Shown here in pieces: positions 6,022 to 44,168 of a stretch of 64,000 nt of DNA. Source of the DNA: a bacterium. Its GTDB lineage: Bacteria > Patescibacteriota > Minisyncoccia > Phycocordibacterales > Phycocordibacteraceae. The DNA lies in NCBI GenBank assembly GCA_021849125.1, contig JAJZTG010000001.1, positions 18,392-82,391 of the forward strand, in the 5' to 3' direction. The position numbers were made by a program, and so were the translations under genes. The notes under the pieces are model-generated. The model was not told where the DNA came from and searched no databases. It worked only from the letters and a program-made list of their open reading frames with translations. Numbering within the stretch: the first letter of the stretch is position 1; each line of letters begins with the position of its first letter.

Positions 6022-6029
6022 TTTAAACT

Positions 6030-6464: not shown

Positions 6465-6477
6465 TCCTTTCCTTATT

Positions 6478-7089: not shown

Positions 7090-7118
7090 TTTTAATCACT
7101 GGTAATTACGATTGCGTT

Positions 7119-8069: not shown

Positions 8070-8080
8070 TAATCACGTGT

Positions 8081-8434
8081 ATGGCATTTACTAAGAAAGC
8101 AACAACCCCGGGCCGCACGATCGGCCAGCGCCGCGCCCTCCTTCGTTCGCAGGCGCGCTCCCTCATCCTTGAGGAGCGCATCTCGACTACGGAAGCAAAG
8201 GCGAAGGCGCTTCGCCCGTTCGTCGAGCGTCTCGTCACCTACGCGAAGAAGAACACGCTCGCAAGCCGCCGTCTCACCAAGAGCACGCTCGGCGATGACG
8301 AAGCGGTGAAGAAGCTCTTCGAGGTCGTTGGCCCGCGCTACGCGGATCGCGCCGGGGGCTACACCCGCATCGTGAAGCGCACCGCGCGCGGCGCGAACGA
8401 CGCACGCAAGCTTGCGTATATCGCTCTTGTCTAG
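8081..8434 (+). CDS. rplQ: 50S ribosomal protein L17
   Basis: RALLRSQARSLILEERISTTEAKAKALRPFVERLVT...GGYTRIVK canonical L17. Confidence 0.93.
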   Translation: MAFTKKATTPGRTIGQRRALLRSQARSLILEERISTTEAKAKALRPFVERLVTYAKKNTLASRRLTKSTLGDDEAVKKLFEVVGPRYADRAGGYTRIVKRTARGANDARKLAYIALV

Positions 8435-8451
8435 TATTCATAACAATTATC

Positions 8452-8826
8452 ATGACCACTCGCATCCATAACATCGAGCCGACCACGTATACGATCGACG
8501 CAACCGATCGTACGCTTGGCCGCGTGGCTAGCGAAGCTGCACACGCGCTTCTCGGCAAGCGCTCCGCACAGTTCGCCAAACACCTCGCGATGCCGGTCAC
8601 GGTCGTCATCGAGAACGCATCCAAGATGCATCTCTCCGAGTCCCGCACAAAGGGCAAGGTCTACACGCGCTACACCGGATTCCCGGGCGGTCTCCGCGAG
8701 ATGACCATGGCGGAAATGATCGCGAAGAAGGGTATCGAGGAGGTCGTGAAGAAGACCGTCGATGGCATGATCCCGCGCAACCGCCTTCGCGCCCCGCGCA
8801 TGAAGAACCTTATCGTTAAAGCTTAG
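8452..8826 (+). CDS. rplM: 50S ribosomal protein L13
   Basis: YTIDATDRTLGRVASEAAHALLGK... canonical L13. Confidence 0.93.
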   Translation: MTTRIHNIEPTTYTIDATDRTLGRVASEAAHALLGKRSAQFAKHLAMPVTVVIENASKMHLSESRTKGKVYTRYTGFPGGLREMTMAEMIAKKGIEEVVKKTVDGMIPRNRLRAPRMKNLIVKA

Positions 8827-8831
8827 TCAGT

Positions 8832-9230
8832 ATGGCATCAACCACTTTCACCAATGCAGTCGGACGTCGCAAGACCGCTATCGCGACGGTCCGCATCACG
8901 CCTGCTGCCAAAGCATCGATTACCGTCAACGGCCGCTCGGTCGACGAATACTTCAAGACGCCTGATCGCGTACGCATCGTGAACGAAGCGGTCAAGATCG
9001 CTGAGACTGCTGAAACCTACGCGGTGACTTCCCACATCGAGGGGGGCGGTCTCGCTGCACAGGCAGAAGCGCTTCGTCACGCAATCTCCCGCGCCTTCAC
9101 GGAGGTGGAGCCGAAGACGCGCCCAGCGCTCAAGCAGGCAGGCCTCCTCACGCGCGACGCGCGTGCCAAGGAACGCAAGAAGCCAGGCTTGGTCAAAGCA
9201 CGTAAACGTAAGCAGTGGAGCAAGCGCTAG
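8832..9230 (+). CDS. rpsI: 30S ribosomal protein S9
   Basis: GRRKTAIATVRITP...GGGLAAQAEALRHAISRA...KKPGLVKARKRKQWSKR canonical S9. Confidence 0.93.
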   Translation: MASTTFTNAVGRRKTAIATVRITPAAKASITVNGRSVDEYFKTPDRVRIVNEAVKIAETAETYAVTSHIEGGGLAAQAEALRHAISRAFTEVEPKTRPALKQAGLLTRDARAKERKKPGLVKARKRKQWSKR

Positions 9231-9266: not shown

Positions 9267-9360
9267 TCGTTGTGATAGAGCTATTGCTTTTTATTTTCTT
9301 TGTGTGATACTTATGTTCAGAAGCACCCGTATCTTATAACCCTCAAGAAAGGAGTCTCCT

Positions 9361-9765
9361 TTGAAAAAGTCGAAAACTGAAGCGCTGAAAGAGGCTGGTC
9401 GCTATTTCTTCCATTTGGTTACTCGGTGTATGTACTCAAGTCGGTCGCCGATCTACCTGGAAGCCCCTCTCTTTCTCGGGAAACACACCTTCGTGATGCT
9501 CGTTATCCCAACGGATAACTTAACTCTCAAGATGGTGCACGACCTGTGCATGGAGGTGGGTACAAGGACGCACGATCCGGTGGTGGAACATGACCGCCTG
9601 ATTCTGCCGATCGTCTTGCAAACAGATACTGCTGCCGATTTTCGCACGAAGGCGAAAGAGACACTCGCCTGGGCAGAAGAACGGTTCAAACATCAAGCGA
9701 TCCTTCGACAGCATCATCGTGGCTTGCACGATCTGCGCCGCGAATTCGGCATCGTCTCTGCATGA
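9361..9765 (+). CDS. hypothetical protein (lower GC, TTG start with strong SD)
   Basis: aaggagtctcc precedes TTG 9361. The local GC is clearly below the flanking rps genes. It is bracketed by terminators and has no recognisable family motifs. Confidence 0.5.
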   Translation: MKKSKTEALKEAGRYFFHLVTRCMYSSRSPIYLEAPLFLGKHTFVMLVIPTDNLTLKMVHDLCMEVGTRTHDPVVEHDRLILPIVLQTDTAADFRTKAKETLAWAEERFKHQAILRQHHRGLHDLRREFGIVSA

Positions 9766-9782
9766 TGCTAAGAATGGAATTA

Positions 9783-9846
9783 GGCCGCTCACCTCGGGCG
9801 GCTTTTTTGTTTTTAAATAAAAGCAGGACAGCGTACGCTGTCCTGC
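9783..9846. terminator. pair of convergent terminator hairpins (gccgc..gcggc+T6; gcaggacagc gtac gctgtcctgc)
   Basis: First hairpin followed by tttttt on + strand; second perfect 10-bp stem followed by T-run on the minus strand, terminating the CPBP gene. Confidence 0.6.
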
Positions 9847-9857
9847 TGAGCTGCGAC

Positions 9858-10424
9858 TTAAAAAAGTCTCAGATAAAGCACGGCGTCGATAAGGAGATGC
9901 GTTAATATCACCATACCTATCGCTCGGAAGAACCTCATGCGCATCCCGCCACATTTTAAAAACACAAGGCAAAGAATCAAACCCCCGACTCCCTGAAGAG
10001 GGATGTTGAGGAGGCCGCCGTGCATATAACCGAAGTGTGCCGATGAAATGAACACCGCAGGAGATATAAAGAAACGCAGTCCGAAGAATATAGGGGCGGT
10101 CAATGGCAAGAATCGCCAGTACAACTCCTCATTCACGATGATGGGGACTACCTGCGAAATGAATTGCTGTGATGACAAGGCCCAGATATCTACAACCCCT
10201 TCTCGTGGTAAATAAACATCAAATGCGCTGTAGACATAAGGGCCGCCAAACAGCAAGATTAGGCTTGCACAACACGCTAAGGCGACGTATCGCAACTCCA
10301 TCCCGAACGTTTCTTCTCTCTCAAGCCACGCATGCAGACGTATGAGTGCCATGATGCACCTCCTTTCCTCTTTGTGTGAGATCATGACGCGTATCAGCGT
10401 CTCTGTATCTTTGGTACCTCCCAA
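9858..10424 (-). CDS. CPBP family intramembrane metalloprotease (CAAX protease/Abi-like)
   Basis: Multi-TM protein with the three CPBP motifs: EELYWRF (EExxxR), FGYMHG (FxxxH) and HLLIDAV (HxxxN/D). True start may be the internal Met at about 10352 (MALIRLH). Confidence 0.7.
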   Translation of the reverse strand: MGGTKDTETLIRVMISHKEERRCIMALIRLHAWLEREETFGMELRYVALACCASLILLFGGPYVYSAFDVYLPREGVVDIWALSSQQFISQVVPIIVNEELYWRFLPLTAPIFFGLRFFISPAVFISSAHFGYMHGGLLNIPLQGVGGLILCLVFLKCGGMRMRFFRAIGMVILTHLLIDAVLYLRLF

Positions 10425-10450
10425 GACCTAGACTGTCAATCTCCAACCAG

Positions 10451-11149
10451 ATGGACTTCTTATTTTGCTACAATCTGCCCATGGAATTCATTCACTCCGA
10501 AGATGGGAAGGACGGGGCGATCGCGATGGGCGACGAGCTCGCCGAGGCACTCAAGAAGGGGAGCGTGACGTGGCTTGTCTGCGGCGGGTCGAGCATCGCG
10601 CTTGCGGTCATTGCCATGCGCCACTTGCGCGAAAAGACGAGTGAAGAGGATCTCGCGCGCCTCACCGTCGGCCTTACCGACGAACGCTACGGCGACGTGG
10701 GGCACAAGGATTCCAACTGGCAGCAGCTTCTGGACGCAGGATTTGATACAGCCGGCGTAGACGTGATTCCGACCCTCATCGGCGCACCTCTTGCAGAGAC
10801 CGTGACGGCCTATGCCGAGAAACTCGATCGAGCGCTCGACGCCGACACGGTTATCGTGCAGTTCGGCATCGGGGCAGACGGTCACATCGCCGGTATCTTG
10901 CCTGGCTCATCGGCTGTGACTGCTGCCGAGCTCGTCGCTGGCTACGAAGCAGGCCCGTATACCCGGATCACCATGACTCCGCCCGCATTCGACCGCGTCG
11001 ATATCGCATACGCCTTCGTCTTTGGCGAATCAAAACGCGAAGCGGTCGAGAAGCTCCGCACGCAGGATCTGTCCATCTCCGATATGCCGAGCCAGCTTCT
11101 GAAACAAATTCCCGCAAAATCTATACATACTGACGTCTATTGCAGATAG
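10451..11149 (+). CDS. pgl: 6-phosphogluconolactonase / glucosamine-6-P isomerase family protein
   Basis: GIGADGHIAGILPGS matches the 6PGL signature (GxGxDGHxASLFPG). Start may be the Met at 10481. Confidence 0.65.
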   Translation: MDFLFCYNLPMEFIHSEDGKDGAIAMGDELAEALKKGSVTWLVCGGSSIALAVIAMRHLREKTSEEDLARLTVGLTDERYGDVGHKDSNWQQLLDAGFDTAGVDVIPTLIGAPLAETVTAYAEKLDRALDADTVIVQFGIGADGHIAGILPGSSAVTAAELVAGYEAGPYTRITMTPPAFDRVDIAYAFVFGESKREAVEKLRTQDLSISDMPSQLLKQIPAKSIHTDVYCR

Positions 11150-11180
11150 ACTCAAGACAAGTATTATTCACCTGTAATCC

Positions 11181-11837
11181 ATGACGTTCACTCATATCAT
11201 AGAAATCTCTGCAAATATCGCTCAGATCGTACTCGTTATAGGACTCTATGTTGCCTGGAAACAACTTTTTACTGCCATTAACGATATAGACATTCGTTCA
11301 AAACGAGAGGCAGGAACCCTTGCTATCAAAGAGGCTGAACGATTCGCGGAAGAAATTATTCCTCTCTATACAGAGCTCAATAAAAAAATCGGGGGGTTCC
11401 AACCAACTTCCCAAAGACTCGATCGGTTCGTCTTTTCAGAAATAGAACCCGTTAATGTTCAGAAATATAAAAACAGCATAGAACGCTTAGTGAAAGCTCC
11501 CGAGGTATACGAACGACTCGTAACGCTTACTAATAGAATAGACAGTATCGCTATCTATTTTACCAAAGGTATTGCGGACGAAGCGATAGTATTTGAATCA
11601 ATTGGACACGTATATTGCGAGATTATCGAGGAACTCTACTCCTTTTATTGCCACTATCGCAAAAATACTGAAGAGATCTTGCCATACGAAAATACTTTGC
11701 TCCTCTATCGGATATGGAAAGTGAAATTAGAAAATGTTTCATTAGAAGTAAGTAAAAATCTGCTGGAAGAGCGGTCGCGTGCAATAAAAGATTCGGCCAC
11801 GAAAACCCCTCCCGTTAAACCTATAGGAACTCGTTAG
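11181..11837 (+). CDS. hypothetical membrane-anchored protein (low-GC insert upstream of grpE)
   Basis: AT-rich ORF (about 40% GC) with one N-terminal TM helix (IAQIVLVIGLYVAW) and a helical cytoplasmic domain of about 190 aa. No SD. Unrelated to HrcA, which normally occupies this position. Confidence 0.5.
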   Translation: MTFTHIIEISANIAQIVLVIGLYVAWKQLFTAINDIDIRSKREAGTLAIKEAERFAEEIIPLYTELNKKIGGFQPTSQRLDRFVFSEIEPVNVQKYKNSIERLVKAPEVYERLVTLTNRIDSIAIYFTKGIADEAIVFESIGHVYCEIIEELYSFYCHYRKNTEEILPYENTLLLYRIWKVKLENVSLEVSKNLLEERSRAIKDSATKTPPVKPIGTR

Positions 11838-11879
11838 GGAAGTTTTGACTCCGCTCGTCATTTCGGGCATTATGGACCT

Positions 11880-12428
11880 ATGAAGGAATGGCACGGAGAC
11901 GATATTGACCCGGAGGACATCGTCCTCGAAGCAGAAAATAACGAACCGCCCAAAGGGGGCGATTGCGAGAAGAAAGTAGAGAAGCTGAAAGCCGAGCTCG
12001 AAGCGACAAAAGCCGAGAGCCGGGAAAATCTCGACGGTTGGCAGCGCGCGAAAGCCGACTACGTAAACCTCCTGAAGCGCTTCGACGACGAGTCGAAAGC
12101 AGCGAAAGAGAAAGGGAAGGTGAAGGCGGTCGAAGCGCTTCTTCCGGCCTTCGATGCGCTTGAGCGCGCGAAGGAACACGGCGAGATTCCAGAAGGGTTT
12201 GCAGCGATCGCGAAGCAACTCGAAAGCGCTTTTGCAGAACTCGGTCTCACGGAGGTCGGTGCAGAGGGGGAGAATTTCGATCCGATGTACCACGAGGCCT
12301 ACGGTCAGGACACGGTCACCTCTCCAGAAAAGGACGGTATGGTGACCGCGATCCTCGAGAAGGGTTGGAAGATAGGCGACGCGGTTGTCCGTCCGGCAAA
12401 GGTGCGTGTGGGCCATTATCAGGCATAG
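11880..12428 (+). CDS. grpE: nucleotide exchange factor GrpE
   Basis: coiled-coil N-term then GWQRAKADYVNLLKRFDDE ... DPMYHEAYGQ...GWKIGDAVVRPAKVRV canonical GrpE. Confidence 0.9.
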   Translation: MKEWHGDDIDPEDIVLEAENNEPPKGGDCEKKVEKLKAELEATKAESRENLDGWQRAKADYVNLLKRFDDESKAAKEKGKVKAVEALLPAFDALERAKEHGEIPEGFAAIAKQLESAFAELGLTEVGAEGENFDPMYHEAYGQDTVTSPEKDGMVTAILEKGWKIGDAVVRPAKVRVGHYQA

Positions 12429-12485
12429 TTGCAGCGCTCCGAGCGATTCCGTAAAATATCAACTGGCTTAACTTTTTTATTACCT

Positions 12486-14384
12486 ATGGCAAAAATTCTT
12501 GGTATCGATTTGGGAACGACTAACTCGGCGATGGCGATCGTCGAAGGCGGCGAGCCGCGCGTTCTTGAGAACGCTGAGGGTGCACGCACGACTCCTTCGA
12601 TCGTCGCGGTCGGCAAGAACGGCGAGCGCATCGTCGGTACGCTTGCGAAGCGCCAGTCGGTGACGAATCCGCTCAACACGATCTACCAGATCAAGCGCTT
12701 CATCGGCCACAGCTTCGATGAGCCGGAAGTCCAGAAGGACAAGGCGGCGGTCCCGTTTGAGATGCGTAAGGCTGACAACGGCGGCATCGAGGTGAAGATG
12801 GGCGAGAACTGGTACCGCCCGGAGAAGGTCTCCGCGATGATCCTCGGCAAGCTCAAGGCCGACGCGGAAGCGAAGCTCGGCGAGAAGATCACCGAGGCGG
12901 TCATCACCGTACCGGCATACTTCAACGACGACCAGCGCAGCGCCACGAAGGCTGCCGGCCAGATCGCCGGTCTCGACGTGAAGCGCATCATCAACGAGCC
13001 GACGGCTGCTGCACTCGCGTACGGTTTCAATAAGAAGAAGGATGAGAAGATCGCGGTCTTCGACTTCGGTGGCGGCACCTTCGATATCTCGATCCTCGAG
13101 GTGGGCGATGACGTCATCGAGGTGAAGTCCACCGATGGCGACGCGCACTTGGGCGGCAAGGATATCGATCAGAAGATCATCACCTGGCTCGCCGGTGAAT
13201 TCAAAAAGGAGAGTGGCATCGATGTGCTCACCGACGCGCTCGCGCGCCAGCGCCTCGACGAGGCAGCCGAGAAGGCAAAGATCGAGCTCTCGAGCGCGAT
13301 GGAAACGGAGGTCAACATCCCGTTCCTCACCTCGGACGCTTCCGGTCCGCGCCACCTCCTCGTGAAGATGACCCGCGCCCAGCTCGAAGACCTCGCAAGC
13401 GAGTATGTGGATCGTGCGCTCGACATCACCAAACGCGCGATGGAAGCCTCACCCTTCAAGGTCGGTGACATCAACGAGGTGATCCTCGTGGGCGGACAGA
13501 CCCGCATGCCAGCAATCCAAGCTGCGGTAGAGAAGTTCTTCGGTAAGAAGCCGAACATGAGCGTAAACCCGGACGAGGTCGTTGCCATGGGTGCCGCGAT
13601 TCAGGCAGGTATCCTTCAGGGCGATGTGAAGGATATCCTCCTCGTCGACGTAATTCCGCTCTCGCTTGCTATCGAAACCATGGGCGGTGTCGCGACGAAG
13701 CTCATCGAACGCAATACCGCGATCCCTACGAGCCGCTCGCAGACTTTCTCGACGGCCGCAGACAACCAGTCGTCGGTCGAGATCCACGTCACTCAGGGCG
13801 AGCGTGCCATGAGCGCCGACAACAAGTCCTTGGGCAAGTTCATGCTCGACGGCATCCCGCCGGCACCGCGTGGCATGCCGCAGGTCGAGGTCACCTTCGA
13901 CGTCGATGCCTCCGGCATCCTCACTGTGAAGGCCAAGGAAAAGACGACTGGCAAGGAGCAGTCGATCCGTATCGAGGGCTCGACTGGCCTCTCGAAGGAA
14001 GACATCGAAAAGATGAAGGCTGACGCAGAAGCGCACTCGGCAGACGACGAGAAGCGCAAAGCGCTCGTCGAGGCACGCAACAATGCCGACCAGGCGATCT
14101 ACGCTTCCGAAAAGGCGATCAAGGATAACGGCGAGAAGGCTGGTGCCGAGGTCGTGAAGGAAGTCGAAGACAAGGTCGCGGCACTGAAGACGGTAAAGGA
14201 TGGTCAGGACCTTGCCGCTATCAAGACTGCCACCGACGAACTCTCGAGCGCGCTCTCGAAGATCGGCGAGGCGATGATGAAGAACGCCCCCGCAGAAGGG
14301 CAGACCCCTCCGGCCGAAGGAGGCGATCAGACTCCGCCGGAAGCCGGTCCTACCGACGCCGAATTCAAAGAAAAACCAGAATAG
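12486..14384 (+). CDS. dnaK: molecular chaperone DnaK (Hsp70)
   Basis: [22 protein letters not shown]..., [12 protein letters not shown] and the full substrate-binding domain. The ORF track's upstream extension from 12429 is rejected. Confidence 0.95.
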
Positions 14385-14392
14385 ATTCAAAC

Positions 14393-14420
14393 AAAACTCG
14401 CGGAGAAACCGCGAGTTTTG
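14393..14420 (+). terminator. terminator after dnaK
   Basis: aaaactcgcgg agaaa ccgcgagtttt perfect hairpin with T-run. Confidence 0.7.
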
Positions 14421-14511
14421 CTATACGACAAGCATGGTTGCTTCAAGTGGAGTTCATGCTAGTCTGCATGACAGCATCACTCTGTACAATCCAACGAACG
14501 AAGGAGGAGTT

Positions 14512-14724
14512 ATGAACGGACATCAAAGCGAAGAGAGCATGTACCACTTCGAGTACATCTTGGACGGTTCAAAACCCACTGGCCACGTTAGCGCCAAAAA
14601 TGACGAAGAAGCCTACGCCCATATCAAGGCTTTCCTTGAGAAGCACCCCGGGGGCACTTACGTGAAGGGTAGCCTCCTGTGTCTCGGAAAGGCGCGCCCT
14701 GTGGCCGATCCTCCTGGACTCTGA
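14512..14724 (+). CDS. small hypothetical protein inserted between dnaK and dnaJ
   Basis: gaaggaggag SD 4 nt before ATG 14512; about 70 aa (MNGHQSEESMYHFEYILDGSKPTGH...); followed by its own terminator at about 14737-14770. Confidence 0.45.
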   Translation: MNGHQSEESMYHFEYILDGSKPTGHVSAKNDEEAYAHIKAFLEKHPGGTYVKGSLLCLGKARPVADPPGL

Positions 14725-14847
14725 CCAGTCCTGAAACGACACGGCGCGACTCACCAGTCGCGCCGTTTTCCATATAGGAACTCATTGTCTTTTTACAATA
14801 TACATGTCATAATATTTCCAGTTTAATCAGACCTTTGGAGAGTTTAA

Positions 14848-15171
14848 TTGATAGCGAAAAAGAAAATACTGGTCCTGTTGTTGGTTGGTACAGCCCTTCT
14901 CGCTGCAGTATCGGTTGGACATACCTGGCGTGACCACGATCGCGGCATCGCGGCAAAACTACGCGCCAAAGAGTGTGCAGACTCCCGGACCGGTCTTTGC
15001 GTCGGTGGACATGTCTTCAATTACCAAGATTCCAGCTGGAAAAAGATAAGCGTCTGCAACGACCAGTGTGCATCGGATCAAGTTGATATCAGTGAGGTGT
15101 CATCATGGGCAGATTCGTCGCCCTCCGAACTTAAGAACATCAAGATAGTGCGTCCGAGAGAATCTTTATAG
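14848..15171 (+). CDS. small secreted/membrane-anchored Cys-containing hypothetical protein
   Basis: TTG start preceded by ggagag. N-terminal signal/TM segment (ILVLLLVGTALLAAVSVG) and 5 Cys in the mature part. Followed by the terminator aaagcggcctcggccgctttt (about 15185-15212). Confidence 0.45.
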   Translation: MIAKKKILVLLLVGTALLAAVSVGHTWRDHDRGIAAKLRAKECADSRTGLCVGGHVFNYQDSSWKKISVCNDQCASDQVDISEVSSWADSSPSELKNIKIVRPRESL

Positions 15172-15242
15172 TCCCACTCCTCAAAGCGGCCTCGGCCGCT
15201 TTTCATTTTGCATACGAAAAACAGAGAGCGTATAGTATGCTC

Positions 15243-16316
15243 ATGGCGAAAGACTACTACCAGATCCTCGGCGTCGATAAGAAGGCGAGCCAGGACGACA
15301 TCAAGAAGGCGTTCCGTAAGCTCGCACACAAGCACCATCCGGATAAGGGCGGCGATGATGCAACCTTCAAAGAAGTGACCGAAGCCTACGCGATCTTGGG
15401 TGACGAGAAGAAGCGTCGCGAGTACGACACCTACGGGCAGTCCTTCCCGGGTGGCGGTGCAGGTCCGCAAGGCAATCCGTTCGGCGGCTTCGACTTCTCG
15501 CAGTTCCAGCAGGGCTTCGGGCAAGGCGGCGTCCAGTTCGACTTCGGAGATCTCTTCGGTGATATGTTCGGTGGCGGTGCAGCACGCACGCCGCGCGGAC
15601 GCGACATCTCGATCGACCTTGAAATCCCGTTCAAGGATGCCGCCTTCGGTACCGAGCGCACGGTCCTTCTCGCGAAAGTATCTACCTGTGACCTCTGTAT
15701 GGGGAGCGGTGCAAAACCCGGTACCGAACTCGAGACCTGTAAGACTTGTAACGGCAGCGGCCAGGTGCACGAGGTACGAAACTCGATCCTCGGCCAATTC
15801 GCGAGCGTCCGGCCGTGTACCGCCTGCGACGGCAGCGGCAAGATCCCGAAGGAGAAATGTCCGACCTGCAAAGGGCACGGCGTGCTACGTAAGGAAGAGG
15901 AGATCAAGATCTCGATCCCGGCCGGCATCGACAACGGCGAGATGATCCGCATGCCGCGCCAAGGCGAGGCGGTCAAAAACGGCGTAGCCGGTGACCTCTA
16001 CGTAAAGGTGCATGTGAAGCCGCACGCAATCTTCAAGCGTGAAGGCGCGAACCTTGTCATGGACCTGCCAGTGAAGCTCACTGATGCGCTTCTTGGTACC
16101 ACCGTCTCCATCGAAACTTTGGAAGGGAAGACGCTTGAAGTGAAGATCCCGGTCATGAAGCGTGCGGAAGAACTTCTTCGGGTGCGTAGCAAAGGCATCC
16201 CGACAGGTGGCAGCTCTCGCGGCGATCTCATCATCCGCCTTGAGGTAGCGCTCCCGCAGAAGCTCTCAGGCAAGGCCAAAAAGTCTGTTGACGAGTTGAA
16301 AGCGGAGGGTCTCTAG
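15243..16316 (+). CDS. dnaJ: molecular chaperone DnaJ
   Basis: J domain (DYYQILGV...HPDK), Gly/Phe region and four CxxCxGxG zinc-finger repeats. Confidence 0.93.
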   Translation: MAKDYYQILGVDKKASQDDIKKAFRKLAHKHHPDKGGDDATFKEVTEAYAILGDEKKRREYDTYGQSFPGGGAGPQGNPFGGFDFSQFQQGFGQGGVQFDFGDLFGDMFGGGAARTPRGRDISIDLEIPFKDAAFGTERTVLLAKVSTCDLCMGSGAKPGTELETCKTCNGSGQVHEVRNSILGQFASVRPCTACDGSGKIPKEKCPTCKGHGVLRKEEEIKISIPAGIDNGEMIRMPRQGEAVKNGVAGDLYVKVHVKPHAIFKREGANLVMDLPVKLTDALLGTTVSIETLEGKTLEVKIPVMKRAEELLRVRSKGIPTGGSSRGDLIIRLEVALPQKLSGKAKKSVDELKAEGL

Positions 16317-16317
16317 G

Positions 16318-16854
16318 GTGTACAATAGCGACATGACCGCAGCAGACGGTATCGCCCAGGTAAATACGCTCGCGACCCATACGGCGCTCACTATCTGGAG
16401 CGGAATGAGCGACTTCCTCATCGTCCTCGTGCTCGTCGCTGTCTTCTTCCTCTTTGCCTGGTACGTGGGCAGGGGGCCGTTCGTTGCCGTCCTGCTCGCT
16501 TTTTATGCCGCCTACGCCCTCTACGCCGTTTTCCCGTATATGGCGTACTTGCCGACCGCACCGGCCCTGACTGCGCTTGGCGCCCATATCGGCCTCTATC
16601 TCGCCCTCACGCTCGCGTTCTATATCATCCTCCGGCGCGTGGTCGTCTCTGACTTCCTCTATGTGGGCATCTTCGGTCTCATAGCGCTTTCATTCTTAGG
16701 CGCGGCCTTCCTCCTCGCGCTTGCGTTCCACGTCTTCCCGGTCTCGTCCGTCTACACCTTCACCCCAGCAGTGACACTCCTCTTTGCCCCAGACTCCTAC
16801 TTCTGGTGGTGGTTCGTCGCTCCTGCCATCGGCCTCTTCTTCCTCGCTCGCTAG
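16318..16854 (+). CDS. polytopic membrane protein (hypothetical)
   Basis: About 5 hydrophobic helices, Ala/Leu/Phe rich; abuts dnaJ; no recognisable family motif. Confidence 0.45.
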   Translation: MYNSDMTAADGIAQVNTLATHTALTIWSGMSDFLIVLVLVAVFFLFAWYVGRGPFVAVLLAFYAAYALYAVFPYMAYLPTAPALTALGAHIGLYLALTLAFYIILRRVVVSDFLYVGIFGLIALSFLGAAFLLALAFHVFPVSSVYTFTPAVTLLFAPDSYFWWWFVAPAIGLFFLAR

Positions 16855-16869
16855 TGGTATAGTTTTCCC

Positions 16870-18126
16870 ATGACCCTCGCAGACGAACTCAAAGGACGCG
16901 GGCTCGTAGAGCACGCGTCCGCCGACGTCGAGAAGATTCTCGAGAAGCCGCGGACCGTCTATCTCGGTATCGACCCGACCGCTGACTCGGCACAGGTAGG
17001 CAACCTCGCTGTCCTCCTTCTCATGAAGCGCCTCTCGGACGCAGGCCATAAGCTCGTCTTCCTCGTGGGTGGCGCGACGGGCATGATCGGCGACCCGAAA
17101 GAGAAAGGGGAGCGCTCACTCCTCGACGAAAAGACGCTTGCAAAGAACACGCGCGCTATCAAGACTCAGCTGAAGAGCCTTCTTGGCAACAAGGTGCGCT
17201 TTATGATGGTCGACAACGCTGACTGGCTCACTCGTGTAAAACTCATCCCGTTCCTTCGCGATATCGGCAAGCACTTCACGGTCAATGAGCTCGTGAAGCG
17301 CGAGATCATCAAGAAGCGTCTTGAGACGCCGGATGAGAGCATTTCCTACACCGAATTCACCTACGCGCTTCTCCAGGGTCTCGATTATCTGACGCTCAAC
17401 GAAAAATACGGCGTCGACCTGCAGGTAGGCGGCTCAGATCAGTGGACGAACATCCTCTCGGGTGTCGATCTCGTCCGCAAGAAGAGAGGGCAGGAGGTCT
17501 TCGCGCTTTCGATACCGCTCGTTACTGACGCTTCCGGAAAGAAATTCGGCAAGAGTGAAGGCAATGCCGTCTGGCTCGACCCGAAGAAGACTTCGCCGTT
17601 CCAGTTCTACCAGTTCTGGATCAATCTCCCCGATGACAACCTGGAGACGTATCTCAAAGTCTATACGTTCCTCCCGCTCCCGGAAATCGCGGCGCTCATG
17701 GAACTTCACCGCCGTAATCCAGGCGAGCGCCAGGCTCAGGAGACGCTCGCGCGCCTCGTCACCGAGATCGTCCACGGCCCTGCGGCAGTCGCTCAAGCAG
17801 CAGCAGCTAGCGACGCGCTCTTTGGTCGGATCGCATTTGCCGACCTCTCCCGCGAAGCGCGCGCCGTCGCGCTTGCTGAAGCCCCGTCAGTCACAATTGC
17901 TAAAAAGGATCTCGAGAGCGGCTACTCGCTCGCTGAGGCGCTCGTCACCGGCGGTCTTGCAAGTTCCAAGAATGATGCGCGGCGCCTTATCGAAGGGAAG
18001 GGGGTCTCGCTCTCGGGATTCACGATTGAGAACCCGAATCAGGACCTGCACATGGCCGACCTCCCGGGCGGCTACGCGCTCGTCCGCAAAGGCCGCCAAG
18101 GCGTCCTCATCCTCGTTTTGAAATAA
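16870..18126 (+). CDS. tyrS: tyrosyl-tRNA synthetase
   Basis: Class I Rossmann core with GIDPTADSAQVGNL (HIGH-like) and KFGKSEG (KMSKS), plus a C-terminal S4-like domain. Confidence 0.92.
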   Translation: MTLADELKGRGLVEHASADVEKILEKPRTVYLGIDPTADSAQVGNLAVLLLMKRLSDAGHKLVFLVGGATGMIGDPKEKGERSLLDEKTLAKNTRAIKTQLKSLLGNKVRFMMVDNADWLTRVKLIPFLRDIGKHFTVNELVKREIIKKRLETPDESISYTEFTYALLQGLDYLTLNEKYGVDLQVGGSDQWTNILSGVDLVRKKRGQEVFALSIPLVTDASGKKFGKSEGNAVWLDPKKTSPFQFYQFWINLPDDNLETYLKVYTFLPLPEIAALMELHRRNPGERQAQETLARLVTEIVHGPAAVAQAAAASDALFGRIAFADLSREARAVALAEAPSVTIAKKDLESGYSLAEALVTGGLASSKNDARRLIEGKGVSLSGFTIENPNQDLHMADLPGGYALVRKGRQGVLILVLK

Positions 18127-18128
18127 AA

Positions 18129-18160
18129 ACAACCGGCGATAGGTTCGCCGGTTGCGTTCT
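18129..18160. terminator. bidirectional terminator between tyrS and the minus-strand small gene
   Basis: aaccggcgataggttcgccggtt hairpin flanked by A-run and T-run. Confidence 0.65.
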
Positions 18161-18171
18161 GTTGGACAGGG

Positions 18172-18435
18172 CTAAGGGAGATCTTTGTGTATTTCGTGGA
18201 GCACCTCCTTGGGCATCCGGGCGGTTGCTGCGGCTGCAGCAGACTCCTCCGCGTCGCGTGACAATTGATGCTTCAGGCCTTTAAGGTACCTCAATGCTGC
18301 TTCTTTTCTACGTTGAAACCTCTCGCGCCGTACGACAATACCAATAAGGACCAAAATGCCGGCAATCAATACAACCCACACTACCGGGATGTGGAAGACG
18401 ATTTCGCGGTACATGGTGTGCCTCTCTTTCTGCAC
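18172..18435 (-). CDS. small single-TM membrane protein (hypothetical)
   Basis: IPVVWVVLIAGILVLIGIVV TM helix followed by basic stretch; start uncertain (MYREIV at about 18414 possible). Confidence 0.4.
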   Translation of the reverse strand: MQKERHTMYREIVFHIPVVWVVLIAGILVLIGIVVRRERFQRRKEAALRYLKGLKHQLSRDAEESAAAAATARMPKEVLHEIHKDLP

Positions 18436-18524
18436 TGTTGAATCTGCTGCCAGGATAGCACTTTCCGCCCCACCGGCAATCTGCTACGCTAACCTTGGAC
18501 AACTTAAGTAGAAGGAGTCTGATA

Positions 18525-18713
18525 ATGCCCGAAAAGATTCTCCAAAAGCCCGACGGCACATTCGTACTGCTCGCTGTGCCCAAAGTTGGCATTAACCATG
18601 CCATATCGTGTGCAGAGACACATGCCGCGCATAAAGTACATTACAACGGCACCTGGCCGCAAGGAGTGCCGCCCAAAACGGAGGAATCAAGTATTTGGTC
18701 ACTGTGGCACTAA
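18525..18713 (+). CDS. small hypothetical protein
   Basis: gaaggagtctgataATG: strong SD before ATG 18525; 62 aa. The same aggagtct leader motif precedes the 9361 gene. Confidence 0.4.
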   Translation: MPEKILQKPDGTFVLLAVPKVGINHAISCAETHAAHKVHYNGTWPQGVPPKTEESSIWSLWH

Positions 18714-18726
18714 TCGACCTCGGCCC

Positions 18727-18757
18727 CGCAATATGCGGGGCCGTTTTCATTCCTATC
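18727..18757 (+). terminator. terminator hairpin cggccccgca atat gcggggccg + TTTT
   Basis: perfect 9-bp GC stem followed by T-run. Confidence 0.65.
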
Positions 18758-18782
18758 TCAAACATGATAATATCCTCTTACT

Positions 18783-18866
18783 GCGTCGGTGGCGGAGTGG
18801 TCAATCGCAACAGACTGTAAATCTGTCGGGCATAGCCCTACGAAGGTTCGAATCCTTCCCGGCGCA
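18783..18866 (+). tRNA. tRNA-Tyr (anticodon GTA), type II with long variable arm, CCA not encoded
   Basis: Acceptor stem gcgtcgg/ccggcgc (one G-U). Anticodon arm acaga-ctGTAaa-tctgt is identical to the E. coli tRNA-Tyr arm. Long variable arm; T-arm gaagg-ttcgaat-ccttc. Confidence 0.85.
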
Positions 18867-18908
18867 CAAACGTACAAAGCCCGAAAGGGCTTTGTACGTT
18901 TGTGCGCC
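18861..18908. repeat. perfect 22-bp inverted repeat (stem-loop) overlapping the tRNA-Tyr 3' end
   Basis: ggcgcacaaacgtacaaagccc gaaa gggctttgtacgtttgtgcgcc; left arm starts inside the acceptor stem. Confidence 0.8.
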
Positions 18909-19031
18909 GGAGCAGTGCTGGGAGCACTGCGTGAAGGATTCGAAGACCTTGCGAGCATGTTTTGCGATTTCCTGAAGCAAAACATCCGCAAGGTGTACTG
19001 AAGCTGTAAGCTTCGAAAAATGTAATCATGG

Positions 19032-19048
19032 TCCTTCCCGGCGCACCA
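19032..19048 (+). repeat. direct repeat of the tRNA-Tyr 3' end (tccttcccggcgcac) now followed by CCA
   Basis: Copy of the T-stem 3' half plus acceptor 3' strand. Preceded at 18933-18948 by a T-arm-like fragment gaaggattcgaagacc, with no intact cloverleaf. Confidence 0.6.
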
Positions 19049-19051
19049 GCA

Positions 19052-28240: not shown

Positions 28241-29571
28241 ATAAGGTCGTCACTCGTATCGCCCCTTCACCGACGGGTCGTTTCCATATCGGCACCGCAC
28301 GCACTGCGCTTTTCAACTATCTCTTCGCCCGCCACATGGGCGGCTCGTTCCTTATCCGCGTCGAAGATACCGACCGCGAGCGTAGCAAGCCCGAATTCGA
28401 GAAAGATATTCTGGACGGGCTCGCTGGGCTCGGCCTCGTCGCCGACGAGACGGTACGTCAGAGCGAACGCGTCGATCGGCACACCGAGCTTCTGAAAGAA
28501 CTCGTCGGACGCGATCTTGCCTACGTCTCCCACGAAGAAAGCAAGACCGAAGCGGGAAAGACCGTCGAGGTGGTGCGCCTTCGTAATCCAGGAAGGGAAG
28601 TGACCTTTCACGATGAGGTGCGCGGTGATATCACGTTCGATACGACCGAGCTCGGTGACTTCGTCATCGCCCGTTCGCTTACCGACCCGCTCTATCACTT
28701 CGCCGTCGTCGCTGATGACATGGACATGGGCGTCACGCATGTGATCCGCGGCGAAGACCATATCAGCAATACGCCCCGCCAGATACTGATCCAAGAAGCG
28801 ATCGGCGCGCCACGCCCGGTCTACGCGCATCTGCCGCTCATCCTCGACGAGAAGCGTGCGAAGCTCAGCAAGCGTTCTGGCGCGACCAGCGTCCAGGACT
28901 ATCTCGACGAAGGCATACTTCCGGAGGCGCTCGTAAACTATCTCGCGCTTCTCGGGTGGAACCCCGGCGACACGCGCGAGTATTTCACGCTTCAAGAACT
29001 TGTCGATGCGTTCTCGCTCGAAGGCATCCAGAAAAGCGGTGCCGCTTGGGACCGCGAAAAACTCTTGTCGGTCAACCAGCACTGGATGCGTGAGCTTACG
29101 ACCGATGCGTTCATCACCCGAGGCAACCTCACTGCACCCGATGAGAAGCTTCTTATCGAATCCGTCCCGCTCCTCAAAGAGCGTGCACGCACTTTTAGCG
29201 AAGCACGCGAACTCCTTTCCGGCGAGCTTTCCTGCCTGTTTACGAAGCCTGAACTCCACCGGGAGCTCCTCGTTGCAAAAGAACCTACCGAGCGCCCAGG
29301 GATGACCGAAACCGCCCTAGAAAGCCTCCAGGAGCCTATAAAATCCCTTCCTGAGGGCATTTCTGCCGAGGTGGTCAAAGAGTCGCTTATGCCGTTTGCT
29401 GACGCTGAGGAGGCAAAAGGGAAGGGAGGCAGGGGAGCGGTGCTCTGGCCGCTCCGGTATGCGCTTTCGGGTCGCGAGCGCTCGCCAGACCCTTTTACGC
29501 TTATCGCAATCCTCGGAAAAGAAGAGACGCTCTCTCGTTTGGAGAAAGCGGTTGCTATACTAGAAGGATGA
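28237..29571 (+). CDS. gltX: glutamyl-tRNA synthetase
   Basis: RIAPSPTGRFHIGTARTALFNY (HIGH) and KLSKRSG (KMSKS). Overlaps the murG stop by 4 nt. Confidence 0.92.
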   Translation: MNKVVTRIAPSPTGRFHIGTARTALFNYLFARHMGGSFLIRVEDTDRERSKPEFEKDILDGLAGLGLVADETVRQSERVDRHTELLKELVGRDLAYVSHEESKTEAGKTVEVVRLRNPGREVTFHDEVRGDITFDTTELGDFVIARSLTDPLYHFAVVADDMDMGVTHVIRGEDHISNTPRQILIQEAIGAPRPVYAHLPLILDEKRAKLSKRSGATSVQDYLDEGILPEALVNYLALLGWNPGDTREYFTLQELVDAFSLEGIQKSGAAWDREKLLSVNQHWMRELTTDAFITRGNLTAPDEKLLIESVPLLKERARTFSEARELLSGELSCLFTKPELHRELLVAKEPTERPGMTETALESLQEPIKSLPEGISAEVVKESLMPFADAEEAKGKGGRGAVLWPLRYALSGRERSPDPFTLIAILGKEETLSRLEKAVAILEG

Positions 29572-30926
29572 AGCGGTACGGTTCGATCTTTTTTCTTTTC
29601 ATCCTGGTAACCGCAGCATTTCTCGGCAACCCGAGATTGGCCCGGGCCGACGCCGCAGGCGACATTCAGGCGAAAATCGATGCTAACAAGCAACAGATCG
29701 ACGCCCTTGAGGCTGACATCGCTGCCTTCCAGAAACAGCTCGATACGCTCGGCACGAAACGCAATACGCTCCAATCCGCGATCGATACCCTGACGCTCTC
29801 CCAGAAGCAGCTTTCAACCCAGATCAAGATAACCCAGAACAAGATCGCTTCGGCAAACCTGGAGATCCAGCGTCTTTCGCTTTCCATCGGTGATAAGGAA
29901 AAATCGATCTCTGCAGATCAGCAAGCGATCTCAAAACAGCTGCAACAGATACGGGAGAAAGAACACATGCCGCTCATCGCTCAACTCATTTCTGCAGAAA
30001 CGTTGAGCGATGCTTGGAAGGCTGCAGATCAATCCCAACAGCTTAATGCAGCCTTGTCGAAGAATATCGACGACCTGCGCGCGGTCCGCACCGCGCTCGG
30101 CGTCGATCGGGACAAGGTCTCGGCAACCAAAGCGAGTCTTATCGCGCTTCAGAATGATCTCACGCTTGAGAAGCGTTCCGTAGACGCGAGCAAAGCGGCA
30201 CAACAGAGGCTTCTCAAGGAGACGAAAAACCAGGAAGCTAATTACCAGAAGCTGATAGCGCAGAAACAGGCCGCTGAGAAGTCTTTCGAGCAAGAGCTCG
30301 CAAGCCTGCAAAGCCAACTAAACCTTATCGTGCACTCGAACCTTCTCCCGAGAGTCGGGACCGGCATCTTGTCCTGGCCTTTCAGCAGCTCATTCATGTA
30401 CAATTGCGCGCAACGTAAGAAGGTTTTCGGAAACCCGTACTGTATAACGCAATACTTCGGCACCACTGCGTTCTCCACCGCAAATCCGCAAGTCTATAAT
30501 GGCCACGGGCATAACGCTATCGATATCGGCACGCCGATCGGTACGCCGATCAAAGCGGCTCTTGGCGGTACGGTACTCGGCACCGGTAATACCGACCTTT
30601 CTCATGACGCTCAAGGTCGCCAGTGCTATTCCTTCGGCAAGTGGGTCATGATCGTACACGGCAACGGCCTTAACACGCTCTACTCACACCTCTCGGAGAT
30701 CGATGTGGCAAAAGGACAGACCGTTTCTACCGGCCAAGTCATCGGTCTCTCCGGTATGACCGGCTATGCGACCGGGCCACACCTGCACTTCGGCGTGTAC
30801 GCGACCGAAGGTACGAAAATCATGACCTTGGGACAATTCAAATCAGAAAATGGAACCCGCTGTGCGAACGCGACTATGCCGGTCGCATCGATTGATGCCT
30901 ACCTGAATCCGCTTTCCTACCTCTAA
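29568..30926 (+). CDS. M23 family metallopeptidase with long N-terminal coiled coil (EnvC/murein hydrolase activator-like)
   Basis: Signal peptide and about 250 aa of coiled coil, then a LytM domain with HNAIDIG and HLHFGV. Overlaps the gltX stop. Confidence 0.8.
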   Translation: MKRYGSIFFLFILVTAAFLGNPRLARADAAGDIQAKIDANKQQIDALEADIAAFQKQLDTLGTKRNTLQSAIDTLTLSQKQLSTQIKITQNKIASANLEIQRLSLSIGDKEKSISADQQAISKQLQQIREKEHMPLIAQLISAETLSDAWKAADQSQQLNAALSKNIDDLRAVRTALGVDRDKVSATKASLIALQNDLTLEKRSVDASKAAQQRLLKETKNQEANYQKLIAQKQAAEKSFEQELASLQSQLNLIVHSNLLPRVGTGILSWPFSSSFMYNCAQRKKVFGNPYCITQYFGTTAFSTANPQVYNGHGHNAIDIGTPIGTPIKAALGGTVLGTGNTDLSHDAQGRQCYSFGKWVMIVHGNGLNTLYSHLSEIDVAKGQTVSTGQVIGLSGMTGYATGPHLHFGVYATEGTKIMTLGQFKSENGTRCANATMPVASIDAYLNPLSYL

Positions 30927-30976
30927 ATCTCGGCTGGCCGAGGAAAAGGAAAGGGGAGTGGTATACTGAAAACACC

Positions 30977-31156
30977 ATGTTCCACCTTATCTTCTGGCTG
31001 CTCGTCCTCTTTTTGGCGCTCTCTTTCTTCGGGATATCGATCCAAGCCGTCATAAGTTCACCGGCCGGCCAAGCGAACCTGCACTATATAGCCGCTCTTT
31101 TCGCATCCGTCTGGCATTGGCTGGTCCAGACAGTGCAGAGTACGGGGCTTTTCTAA
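30977..31156 (+). CDS. small two-helix membrane peptide (hypothetical, below ORF-track cutoff)
   Basis: MFHLIFWLLVLFLALSFFGISIQ... 59 aa; weak evidence. Confidence 0.25.
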   Translation: MFHLIFWLLVLFLALSFFGISIQAVISSPAGQANLHYIAALFASVWHWLVQTVQSTGLF

Positions 31157-31231
31157 ACCTCAGGCTTTGCCCTAGGATATTTACGCAAAAGATATATTGT
31201 GCGCACTTTATACGTAGAGCCCTCCCTTGAA

Positions 31232-31272
31232 GGAAGAGGCCCTCCCCGCTATGCTGGGAGGGCCTCTTCCTT
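31232..31272. terminator. bidirectional terminator, 15-bp perfect stem
   Basis: ggaagaggccctccc cgctatgct gggagggcctcttcc. Confidence 0.7.
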
Positions 31273-31295
31273 ATTTCTTAAAGCGCACAGCTGAT

Positions 31296-31415
31296 TTAGT
31301 TCTTCAATGCGATAACGATTACCTGAACCAGACTGATGAGGGTGCTTAGGAAGCCGGTCCAGAATGCGTAGACTTCGAGATTCGAGCCCCAACTTTTCTT
31401 ATGCTGCTTCGTCAT
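31296..31415 (-). CDS. small tail-anchored membrane peptide, paralog A (39 aa)
   Basis: MTKQHKKSWGSNLEVYAFWTGFLSTLISLVQVIVIALKN; paralogous to the 32426-32578 peptide (shared VYA..TGFLS.LISL core). The ORF track shows a longer, less plausible extension to 31505. Confidence 0.45.
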   Translation of the reverse strand: MTKQHKKSWGSNLEVYAFWTGFLSTLISLVQVIVIALKN

Positions 31416-31567
31416 ATGAGAAAAGCATATCATGGGCACGGCTTCTTGGACGCTACCCATTATCCACTTCCCTCTCCTATCCGTCCTTTCATGCTTTGAC
31501 TCCACTCTTAAATGCCCGTATCCTGAGTTCCAGCCAGCAACCCAAACCCTAAAAAGGAGGATTCTTT

Positions 31568-32341
31568 ATGTTCTTTCCGTACATAGGCATTACTGATTTC
31601 CTGTCATTTGAACAAGTCGCCCGGATGCTTACCGTGTTTAACGCACACAATCCGCAAGGATCCATGCGGCGACTGCATGTCGGCGTCATGATGAGCTACA
31701 AGACGCTTCACGGCATCGAGACGAAATGGTCGAAGGCCTTCCCGCCCAAGGAAGCCATTGCTAGTATCTTCGGCTCTGAAGAAACCTACAACTGCCTTCA
31801 CTATGCTGACTACGACCATATGCCGAACCTTGGGGAGACTCTCTACCGCGCGATTGGCTACGGTGGTATCGGAATCAACGCCATACAACTCGACATGCCC
31901 TGGCCTGATCCGAGACAAATCGTGCATGGCGTTCATATGTCCCGCCGAAATATCGAGGTCATCCTCCAGGTCGGCAAGGTTGCAATTGAGGAGGCAGACA
32001 ACGATCCTCAAATGGTCGTCCAGCGCCTTGAAGATTATGAGGGAGTGATTCATCGCGTCCTGCTCGACAAGAGCATGGGGCGCGGAGTCGGTATGGATGC
32101 GGTGGCACTACTTCCCTTCGCTCACGCCGTCAGGGCGAGGTTCCCAAACCTTGGCTTAGTCGCTGCAGGAGGGCTCGGACCACAAAGCATCAATCTGGTC
32201 GAACCACTGATCGCGGAGTTCCCCGATCTGAGTATCGACGCTCAAGGAAAACTGCGATCGAGCGGTAACGCACTTGATCCGATTGACTGGAATATAGCTG
32301 CTGAATACCTCGTCAAAGCCTTAGCCTTGTTCGGCAAATAG
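31568..32341 (+). CDS. phosphoribosylanthranilate isomerase (TrpF)-like TIM-barrel protein, orphan
   Basis: Strong SD aaaaaggagg. The N-terminal YIGITDF (like KICGIT), the internal HRVLLDKSMGRGVGMDAVALLPF (like ILLDTKTPEYGGSGKTFDWSLI) and the C-terminal LVAAGGLGPQSINLVEPLIAEFPDLSIDAQGKLRSSGNALDPIDWNIAAEYLVKA (like LSGGLNPENV...VDVSSGVE..PG.KD..KI..F) track the TrpF fold. Confidence 0.5.
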   Translation: MFFPYIGITDFLSFEQVARMLTVFNAHNPQGSMRRLHVGVMMSYKTLHGIETKWSKAFPPKEAIASIFGSEETYNCLHYADYDHMPNLGETLYRAIGYGGIGINAIQLDMPWPDPRQIVHGVHMSRRNIEVILQVGKVAIEEADNDPQMVVQRLEDYEGVIHRVLLDKSMGRGVGMDAVALLPFAHAVRARFPNLGLVAAGGLGPQSINLVEPLIAEFPDLSIDAQGKLRSSGNALDPIDWNIAAEYLVKALALFGK

Positions 32342-44147: not shown

Positions 44148-44168
44148 GAGTGTAGTATACTGCACCAT

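Follow-up and report, generated by a model that had tools for sequence, protein, structure and literature searches.

Leaderless-type promoter boxes and Shine-Dalgarno motifs at core and accessory gene starts in a 64-kb window of a Kaiserbacteria genome

Extended -10 boxes ahead of core genes

The stretch of DNA analysed here, referred to as the window, spans 64 kb (GC content ~56%) of the genome of a Candidatus Kaiserbacteria / Paceibacterota bacterium of the candidate phyla radiation (CPR), and the subject of this work is the set of signals that precede its gene starts. These starts probably follow three modes, namely leaderless first cistrons, translationally coupled internal cistrons and a leadered minority led by Shine-Dalgarno (SD) motifs. 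A total of 68 starts were curated from candidate-start listings, corresponding to ~49 named core genes and 19 genes without assigned function. The annotation used for comparison was that of contig DAHVJR010000002.1 (metagenome-assembled genome GCA_027321305.1), on which the window lies; over the parts of the contig compared, the curated starts matched it for the majority of genes. At the gathering score, Rfam detected two tRNAs in the window and no further family.

SD motifs were scored as matches of at least 5 nucleotides (nt) to AAGGAGGTGA at a spacing of 3-11 nt, and by this measure none was found before the ~49 named core genes of the window. The 18 housekeeping genes that an earlier sequence-only reading of this DNA had listed as devoid of SDs were indeed so (0/18). 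The same reading had described short A/T-rich tracts before the core ATGs; the tracts are present, but they correspond to extended -10 boxes, so that the main cause of the dichotomy had been missed. A hexamer TAnnnT ending 5-9 nt before the start codon was detected at 30-31 of the 68 starts, compared to a background of 0.032 (p = 5e-28), with 6 nt as the most frequent spacing. The consensus of these boxes was T(-3)G(-2)nTATAnT, with the full TGn extension in 12/30, T(-3) in 53% and G(-2) in 63%. No -35 signal accompanied the 30 leaderless-type starts of the window, all of them used ATG, and an SD of at least 5 nt was found at none. Representative cases are the following:

16855..16872, plus strand: predicted leaderless promoter of tyrS, TGGTATAGT (16855-16863), 6 nt, ATG 16870
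19080..19099, plus strand: predicted leaderless promoter of trpS, TGTTATATT (19080-19088), 8 nt, ATG 19097; directly 3' of the terminator at 19052-19078
23368..23384, plus strand: predicted leaderless promoter of scpB, TATGAT (23368-23373), 8 nt, ATG 23382
27086..27103, plus strand: predicted leaderless promoter of murG, TGCTATAGT (27086-27094), 6 nt, ATG 27101
7107..7121, plus strand: leaderless-type box of rpoA, TACGAT (7107-7112), 6 nt, ATG 7119; within the ribosomal-protein cluster
44145..44171, both strands: divergent leaderless-type pair rmuC/yqeY, ATG 44147 (minus) and ATG 44169 (plus), 21 nt apart, with TATACT before each
M23 peptidase gene: TGCTATACT, 6 nt, ATG
dnaJ: TATAGT, 6 nt, ATG
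lysS: TGTATAGT, 7 nt, ATG
mraZ: TATAAT, 7 nt, ATG

The conservation of the box was analysed in the loci of 80 species-level relatives, fetched with the TyrS protein and labelled Candidatus Kaiserbacteria, Paceibacterota or Patescibacteria (1.23 Mb in total), to which a further 161 kb of loci from more distant Paceibacterota were added. The box was present in all orthologues of trpS (n = 54; 98% with TGn) and scpB (n = 43), and in 91% of those of the gene for a membrane protein of 173 amino acids (aa; memb173), 87% for aspS, 80% for murG (n = 15), 76% for rpoA at a spacer of 6 (n = 25) and 66% for dnaJ. For tyrS, TGnTAnnnT was found at 5-9 nt in 88% of the orthologues (n = 73), and upstream of the gene this element, 6-7 nt before the ATG, was almost the only one conserved, the flanks having diverged.

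A similar picture was obtained when the 1.23 Mb were scanned for TGnTAnnnT followed by ATG without any gene calling: 137 cases had a spacer of 6 and 80 a spacer of 7, compared to ~15 at other distances, and 131 of the 137 spacer-6 cases opened reading frames of at least 60 aa. The codon found at spacers 6-7 was ATG in 185 cases, GTG in 6, TTG in 3 and the control codon CTG in 3. The spacer peak recurred in the 161 kb of more distant loci.

Transcription starts 6-7 nt downstream of a -10 hexamer. With the box 6-9 nt before the ATG, the predicted 5' end of the mRNA would therefore coincide with the A of this codon or fall no more than ~3 nt away from it, and the near-exclusive use of ATG after the box is what leaderless initiation predicts. 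Most genes heading a transcription unit, and nearly all the housekeeping ones among them, would thus be transcribed from a TGnTAnnnT element with no -35 signal as leaderless mRNAs, for which an SD would not be needed.

One practical consequence concerns annotation, since gene callers tuned to SDs will misplace starts in such genomes. An example is aspS (20583-20766, plus strand), whose start differs between two assemblies of this organism (GTG 20694, 464 aa, vs. ATG 20766, 440 aa); the boxes upstream of its orthologues favour the start at 20766.

Two further arrangements were observed around these promoters. At 19052-19088 and 20724-20756, the upstream terminator hairpins run straight into the extended -10 elements of trpS and aspS, so that terminator T-tract and promoter TGnTAnnnT overlap in bases, an arrangement kept in the homologous contig L112. 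In addition, the ATGs of the divergent pair hyp118/rpmA (33697-33717) are 19 nt apart, and in this pair and in rmuC/yqeY the -10 boxes of opposite strands overlap back to back (TATAGT/CACTAT and TATACT/TATACT, respectively); both are predicted to be extremely compact bidirectional promoters.

Operon-internal core genes

A second group of core genes showed neither SD nor -10 box. Where the loci of the relatives overlap the window, these were infA, rpsK, rpsD, rplQ, rplM, rpsI, scpA, dacA, mraY, ftsW and gltX, and in the second half recR, rsmH, murF and mreD. The two main clusters involved are:

5641..9230, plus strand: ribosomal-protein/rpoA cluster, in which 5-17 nt separate the starts of rpsK, rpsD, rplQ, rplM and rpsI from the stop codon before them, with no SD and no conserved -10 box
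23989..29571, plus strand: cell-wall cluster dacA-mraY-ftsW-murG-gltX, with internal cistrons -4 to 17 nt apart and without SDs

Among the 28 co-directional genes of the window with neither signal, the median gap to the upstream gene was 12 nt, and several overlapped it by 4 nt. In the orthologues of the internal genes an SD of at least 5 nt was found in 0% of cases for most genes and in ~10% for rplQ and mraY, and a -10 box in no more than 23%. Start codons located about -20 to +17 nt from the previous stop (ATGA overlaps and gaps of 2-13 nt), without SDs, are also found in operons translated by termination-reinitiation, and we infer that the internal core cistrons may be translated by this kind of coupling. 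The arrangement differs from that of most bacteria, whose coupled genes often bear an SD in the upstream gene, since no such motif was present in orthologues of the rps and rpl genes, scpA, dacA or ftsW, apart from the ~10% of rplQ and mraY. Core genes would then lack SDs because their mRNAs are leaderless or because the genes are translationally coupled.

Another operon of the window, at 44941-52666 on the minus strand, encodes a repeat-rich surface-type protein of 1307 aa, a protein of 486 aa, a response regulator and a PAS/histidine kinase. A -10 box was found at its first gene only, and the other three start 9-34 nt after the preceding stop without an SD.

Genes led by Shine-Dalgarno motifs

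The six SDs reported by the sequence-only reading were all present, the start codon following the purine run at a distance of 2-7 nt; the GGAGAG before 14848 is weak. Two more strong SDs were found on the minus strand, before 10352 (AAGGAGGT) and 43035 (AAGGAG), and two weak ones before 22878 and 42693 (minus strand). The main genes of this group are:

9345..9765, plus strand: hyp134, SD AAGAAAGGAG (9345-9354), 6 nt, TTG 9361; orphan open reading frame (ORF) of 134 aa
9858..10373, minus strand: Rce1-like membrane protein of 164 aa, SD AAAGAGGAAAGGAGG (10359-10373), ATG 10352
14500..14724, plus strand: hyp70, SD GAAGGAGGAG (14500-14509), ATG 14512; 70 aa
14837..15171, plus strand: hyp107, weak SD GGAGAG (14837-14842), 5 nt, TTG 14848; 107 aa, signal-peptide-like N-terminus
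18510..18713, plus strand: hyp62, SD AGAAGGAG (18510-18517), 7 nt, ATG 18525; 62 aa
20147..20704, plus strand: hyp181, SD AAGGAGA (20147-20153), 5 nt, ATG 20159; 181 aa
31496..32341, plus strand: hyp257, SD AAAAAGGAGGA (31551-31561), 6 nt, ATG 31568; TIM-barrel protein of 257 aa
42832..43047, minus strand: hyp67, SD AAGGAGA (43041-43047), ATG 43035; membrane protein of 67 aa

That such small ORFs are not genes at all, their purine motifs having arisen by chance in intergenic DNA, was considered as an alternative. SDs of 6 nt are expected at a background of 0.015 per 22-nt window, and 7 of the 68 starts carried one (binomial p = 8e-5). None of the seven was among the 49 core genes; all belonged to the 19 genes with no assigned function (Fisher p = 5e-5). 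On the other side, 14848 was not called in the source annotation, its exact sequence was not in the protein collection and its coding score was 0.02; it has the weakest SD and is the least certain gene of the set, even though a promoter-like TTGTCT-17-CATAAT (14785-14813) and a terminator (15183-15202) flank it. The coding scores of 9361 (0.10) and of 10352 on the minus strand (0.01) likewise fell below the 95th percentile of spurious ORFs (0.155), and most of the ORFs had no homologues. For 9361 (GC at third codon positions, GC3, 0.60), which has its own terminator at 9782-9804 and the rpsI terminator upstream at 9238-9264, only the gene itself was found among 5.8 billion proteins, and the syntenic relatives lacked it but for one weak match of 29% identity. 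For 10352 (GC 0.49) there was a weak Pfam Rce1-like match in the source annotation and no orthologue in the 80 relatives.

Better evidence of coding was obtained for other members. The gene at 20159 had just two close homologues among the 5.8 billion proteins, and comparison with the one of 81% identity showed 20, 24 and 69 substitutions at the first, second and third codon positions and 53 synonymous versus 35 non-synonymous codon changes; from this substitution pattern it is therefore a real coding gene. Its promoter-like box (TATCTT, a -10-like element ~41 nt upstream of the start) and the AAGGAGAC SD were kept in that homologue while the flanks diverged, and its terminator (20724-20747) runs into the aspS -10 box. 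The 14512 gene, whose purine run ends 2 nt before the ATG (AAGGAGG + 4 nt), has a -10-like box (TGTACAAT) ~20 nt upstream and ten distant small homologues; the gene is missing from the syntenic relatives. The 18525 gene is a singleton cluster not found in the relatives, followed by its own terminator (18721-18743) and by tRNA-Tyr (18783-18867), and 43035 is also a singleton cluster. With every ORF lying between a promoter-like box and an intrinsic terminator, and with the conserved family of 31568 described below, a chance origin of the whole set seems very improbable.

As side observations on 14512, its product matches a domain of which giant proteins hold up to four copies (e.g. one of 6303 aa, E = 5e-13) and shows a weak likeness to the immunoglobulin G-binding B domain (Pfam, E = 0.08). 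An in-frame ATG at 14434, preceded by a TGCTATAC box, could yield a leaderless isoform of 96 aa.

The sixth gene of the earlier list is 31568. Its promoter is sigma-70-like, with TTGACT (31496-31501), 17 nt and TATCCT (31519-31524), which predicts a 5' untranslated region (UTR) of ~37 nt. More than 1100 homologues with 63-81% identity were found across Paceibacterota, and among 22 unique upstream regions of orthologues (44-81% identity) an SD of at least 5 nt was present in 14-15 and a leaderless-type box in one, with a -10-like hexamer 25-32 nt upstream. AlphaFold modelled the product as a confident TIM barrel (pLDDT 93); the fold search returned generic TIM barrels (TM 0.5-0.6, ~10% identity) and no specific PDB match, which does not point to any particular function. 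Conservation of the SD over 44-81% identity indicates that it is under selection, so that the ribosome most probably still reads SDs; pairing is thus probably functional in this lineage, and not a relic.

The gap of 641 bp between the M23 peptidase gene and 31568 was found to hold an unannotated small ORF (window 30950-31160, plus strand), which reads TGGTATACT, 9 nt, ATG 30978 and encodes a strongly hydrophobic product of ~59 aa (MFHLIFWLLVLFLALSFFG...), apparently a small membrane protein of the leaderless type. At 31226-31275, a long and perfect palindrome rich in GC (GGAAGAGGCCCTCCC...GGGAGGGCCTCTTCC) resembles a bidirectional terminator and is adjoined by a possible ORF of 54 aa (31296-31460, minus strand). 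An Rfam E-value scan of this gap gave chance-level matches only.

When the upstream regions of seven SD genes were aligned, nothing was common beyond the SD, and a mobile promoter/UTR cassette shared by these genes was rejected on this basis. The aggagtct leader that 9361 and 18525 had been said to share does occur in both, but it is just the SD plus three bases, without wider similarity upstream. By analogy with Bacteroidota, rpsU was considered as the identity of a small SD gene and rejected from the translations; the window contains no rpsU.

The contrast between core and accessory starts was also evident in the relatives. An SD of at least 5 nt preceded 14 of 701 core orthologue starts (2%), below the 27 found in the shifted windows that served as control (for box-to-start spacing, the control was the CTG codon). 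Accessory ORFs, which had passed a codon-usage filter and were restricted to variable slots, carried SDs of at least 5 nt in 106 of 301 cases vs. 64 in the control, and of at least 6 nt in 56 vs. 21. In an unbiased count of 5-mers between positions -17 and -4 of the accessory ORFs, with the start taken from the longest ORF, the top words were GGGGG (43-fold, from 7 counts), GGAGG (22-fold), AGGAG (19-fold) and GAGGT (13-fold), with GGGAG, GGAGA and AAGGA (9-fold) lower in the list, followed by the -10-box words TATAC and ATACT; the spacing of the SDs peaked at 5-8 nt. GGAGG, AGGAG and GAGGT are the complement of the canonical anti-SD, which is thus predicted for the 16S rRNA of these organisms.

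Variable slots, origin of the SD-led genes and known systems

The SD-led genes of the window occupy slots of variable gene content between core units (rpsI>grpE, dnaK>dnaJ, tyrS>trpS, trpS>aspS and scpA>scpB), whose length among the relatives ranged from ~10-150 bp up to 2-5 kb and which were empty in some. Each SD orphan is a self-contained cassette between intrinsic terminators, with a promoter-like box. Five of the six SD genes listed earlier, together with 10352 (minus strand), 22878 and 18414 (minus strand), had no syntenic orthologue in any of the 80 relatives; in these loci 9361, 10352, 14512, 14848, 18525, 20159 and 22878 gave from none to one weak match. At 90% identity, the orphans formed clusters of one or two sequences, which came exclusively from this organism or near-identical contigs. 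As the sequence-only reading had proposed, the SD genes are lower in GC (0.49-0.55 vs. 0.57-0.64 for core genes) and have their own terminators. Their GC3 (0.52-0.67 vs. 0.66-0.80) and coding scores are lower too, which makes their codon usage atypical, but low expression would give the same signal.

These features would fit a recent acquisition from SD-using donors, in which case the SDs could be functionless baggage in the present host: the genes lack orthologues in the syntenic relatives, form clusters of one or two members, differ from the core in GC and GC3, and lie between terminators in slots that are empty in some relatives. Several results speak against it. No donor, mobile-element or phage homologue was found, nor any mobility gene; the ten SD-led proteins had no significant family in Pfam, PHROGs, PADLOC or NCBIfam, so that the search for mobile or phage homology suggested earlier gave nothing; and searches with 9361 and 20159 returned only the gene itself or close relatives. 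The 31568 gene is inherited vertically with its SD, and the homologue of 20159 keeps the SD amid diverged flanks. Moreover, in many species SD 5-mers are enriched 13- to 22-fold, and correctly spaced, ahead of accessory ORFs, which points to selection, not decay. The orphan status, absence from the syntenic relatives, low GC3 and terminators of five genes give the earlier proposal partial support, but as an account of the SDs we regard recent acquisition as improbable.

Recent foreign origin is more plausible than for any SD gene in the case of a DUF4760-like gene of 218 aa at 11181-11837 (plus strand), the strongest compositional outlier of the window (GC 0.40, GC3 0.38), which is missing from all 80 relatives and has no clear SD and no canonical -10 box.

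Alternatively, SD-led initiation could be a separate regulatory channel for a functional class, e.g. conditional small or membrane proteins, that would be translated differentially under stress or upon changes in initiation factors. In model bacteria, leaderless and SD-led mRNAs differ in their response to initiation factors IF3 and IF2 and to stress, which would make such a channel feasible, and within the 31568 family the SD mode has been inherited stably. Also, the SD-led genes are underrepresented in the core and overrepresented among small proteins of unassigned function, several with transmembrane or signal-like segments. However, they share no fold, family or size (62-257 aa, one being a TIM-barrel enzyme), and small or accessory genes without SDs occur both in the window (18414 on the minus strand, 44654 and the leaderless-type 59-aa ORF at 30978) and among the relatives, where 69 accessory ORFs were of the leaderless type. 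As first worded, the idea that the host reserves SDs for a class of small proteins finds no support in these observations, and the broader regulatory version seems unlikely, if somewhat less so than acquisition.

Under the three-mode scheme, which remains the one that we favour, the leadered genes would be a minority with a real 5' UTR of ~13-40 nt, and only these would bear a canonical SD, through which the 30S subunit would be recruited by the 3' tail of the 16S rRNA. Most would be poorly conserved cassettes (promoter, SD-containing UTR, ORF and terminator) in slots between core units, and a few old lineage-specific genes such as 31568 would also belong to this class. A more tentative extension, which we consider possible but not the likelier outcome, is that the initiation mode partitions the pangenome in Kaiserbacteria, and perhaps in Paceibacterota, with an SD-free core and the SD as a "plug-and-play" route for the flexible genome and a few lineage-specific genes.

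A number of observations weigh against these proposals. The sampling covers one 64-kb window and one syntenic neighbourhood of 20 kb. The leaderless status is predicted from promoter geometry, and with spacers of 8-9 nt a leader of 1-3 nt would remain. No 16S gene was found in any locus with two conserved 16S patterns or in the window with Rfam, and extension of the contig by 10 kb leftward revealed no rRNA there. The accessory ORFs of the relatives are not uniformly SD-led (89 with an SD, 69 leaderless, 19 with both signals and 124 with neither), and after subtraction of the shifted control the SD excess amounts to only ~12-14% of them. With the coding scores given above and no homologues, the reality of 9361, 10352 and 14848 rests mainly on SD, terminator and ORF length. 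Finally, no more than 48% of the Parcubacteria had the anti-SD motif in a published survey (Tsurumaki et al., 2022; RNA 28:1041, PMC9297842).

The arrangement of the core genes has a precedent in other bacteria. A -10 box TAnnnT with this geometry is the bacterial leaderless signature described as "TA-led" (Zheng et al., 2011; PMC3160421), and GeneMarkS-2 defined a "group C" of genomes with a Pribnow box 6-8 nt from the start and leaderless transcription in 25-50% of operons (10.1101/193490). In those genomes, from Actinobacteria such as Mycobacterium and Streptomyces and from Deinococcus-Thermus, TAnnnT lies 6-8 nt before the first gene of the operon, these starts lack SDs and strongly prefer ATG, and genes of the leaderless and SD-led kinds occur side by side within a genome. 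The group C features of box position, ATG start and absence of an SD were all found here, as far as sequence can tell. The proportion, compared to the 25-50% of operons of group C, is ~46% when taken over all genes of the window, at or above the upper end. Unlike in group C, the lineage is Paceibacterota/Kaiserbacteria within the CPR, the box is frequently of the extended TGn type and, in contrast to actinobacteria, where SDs are the rule for core genes that are internal or leadered, the motif is essentially absent from the core, internal genes included.

With regard to the anti-SD, the lineage belongs to the same superphylum as the Parcubacteria with a reduced motif, and an SD-independent core translatome fits that reduction (PMC9297842). 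It differs from them in that canonical SDs are selectively kept before some genes, which argues that it retains a working anti-SD. That paper covers rRNA and ribosomal proteins rather than the start signals of mRNAs and makes no mention of leaderless mRNAs, and the text of GeneMarkS-2 (10.1101/193490) names no candidate phyla. Our literature search returned no paper that ties leaderless initiation in substance to Patescibacteria, Parcubacteria, Saccharibacteria or the CPR, so a leaderless-dominated, group C-like mode possibly has no earlier report in this lineage, with the core/accessory partition as a possibly new twist.

In Bacteroidota, the anti-SD is sequestered, the mRNAs have leaders whose upstream regions are A-rich and unstructured, and few SDs are kept, e.g. 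that for rpsU autoregulation. The likeness lies in a largely SD-free core and strong SDs in a small special set; the differences are that the upstream signal is here a positioned -10 box and that the SD set consists mostly of accessory orphans, not of a ribosomal-protein gene.

To our knowledge, the mode of translation start in CPR/Patescibacteria, whose ribosomes are reduced, has not yet been worked out. The conserved leaderless-type architecture of the housekeeping genes gives a concrete, testable answer, and it would agree with the notion of leaderless initiation as a mode suited to minimal translation systems. If the pangenome partition were true, it would explain how about half of the Parcubacteria could lose the anti-SD without harm to core translation, and it would predict that lineages without an anti-SD have lost their SD-led accessory genes too. 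The split in start signals between core and accessory genes would also provide a cheap sequence marker of the flexible genome in uncultured lineages.

Two further sets of SD-led proteins were noted in the slots of the relatives. A family of ~320-343 aa with an N-terminus of the type ...FYADSMAF..QGQ.P.F... occurs in ~10 relatives, and not in the organism of the window, within the tyrS>trpS and neighbouring slots (loci L013, L017, L020, L028, L029, L031, L036 and L039), each member behind a strong SD (e.g. AAAGGAGGCAGAG-ATG). In four relatives' loci, SD-led CxxC-rich small proteins of 64-71 aa were also found.

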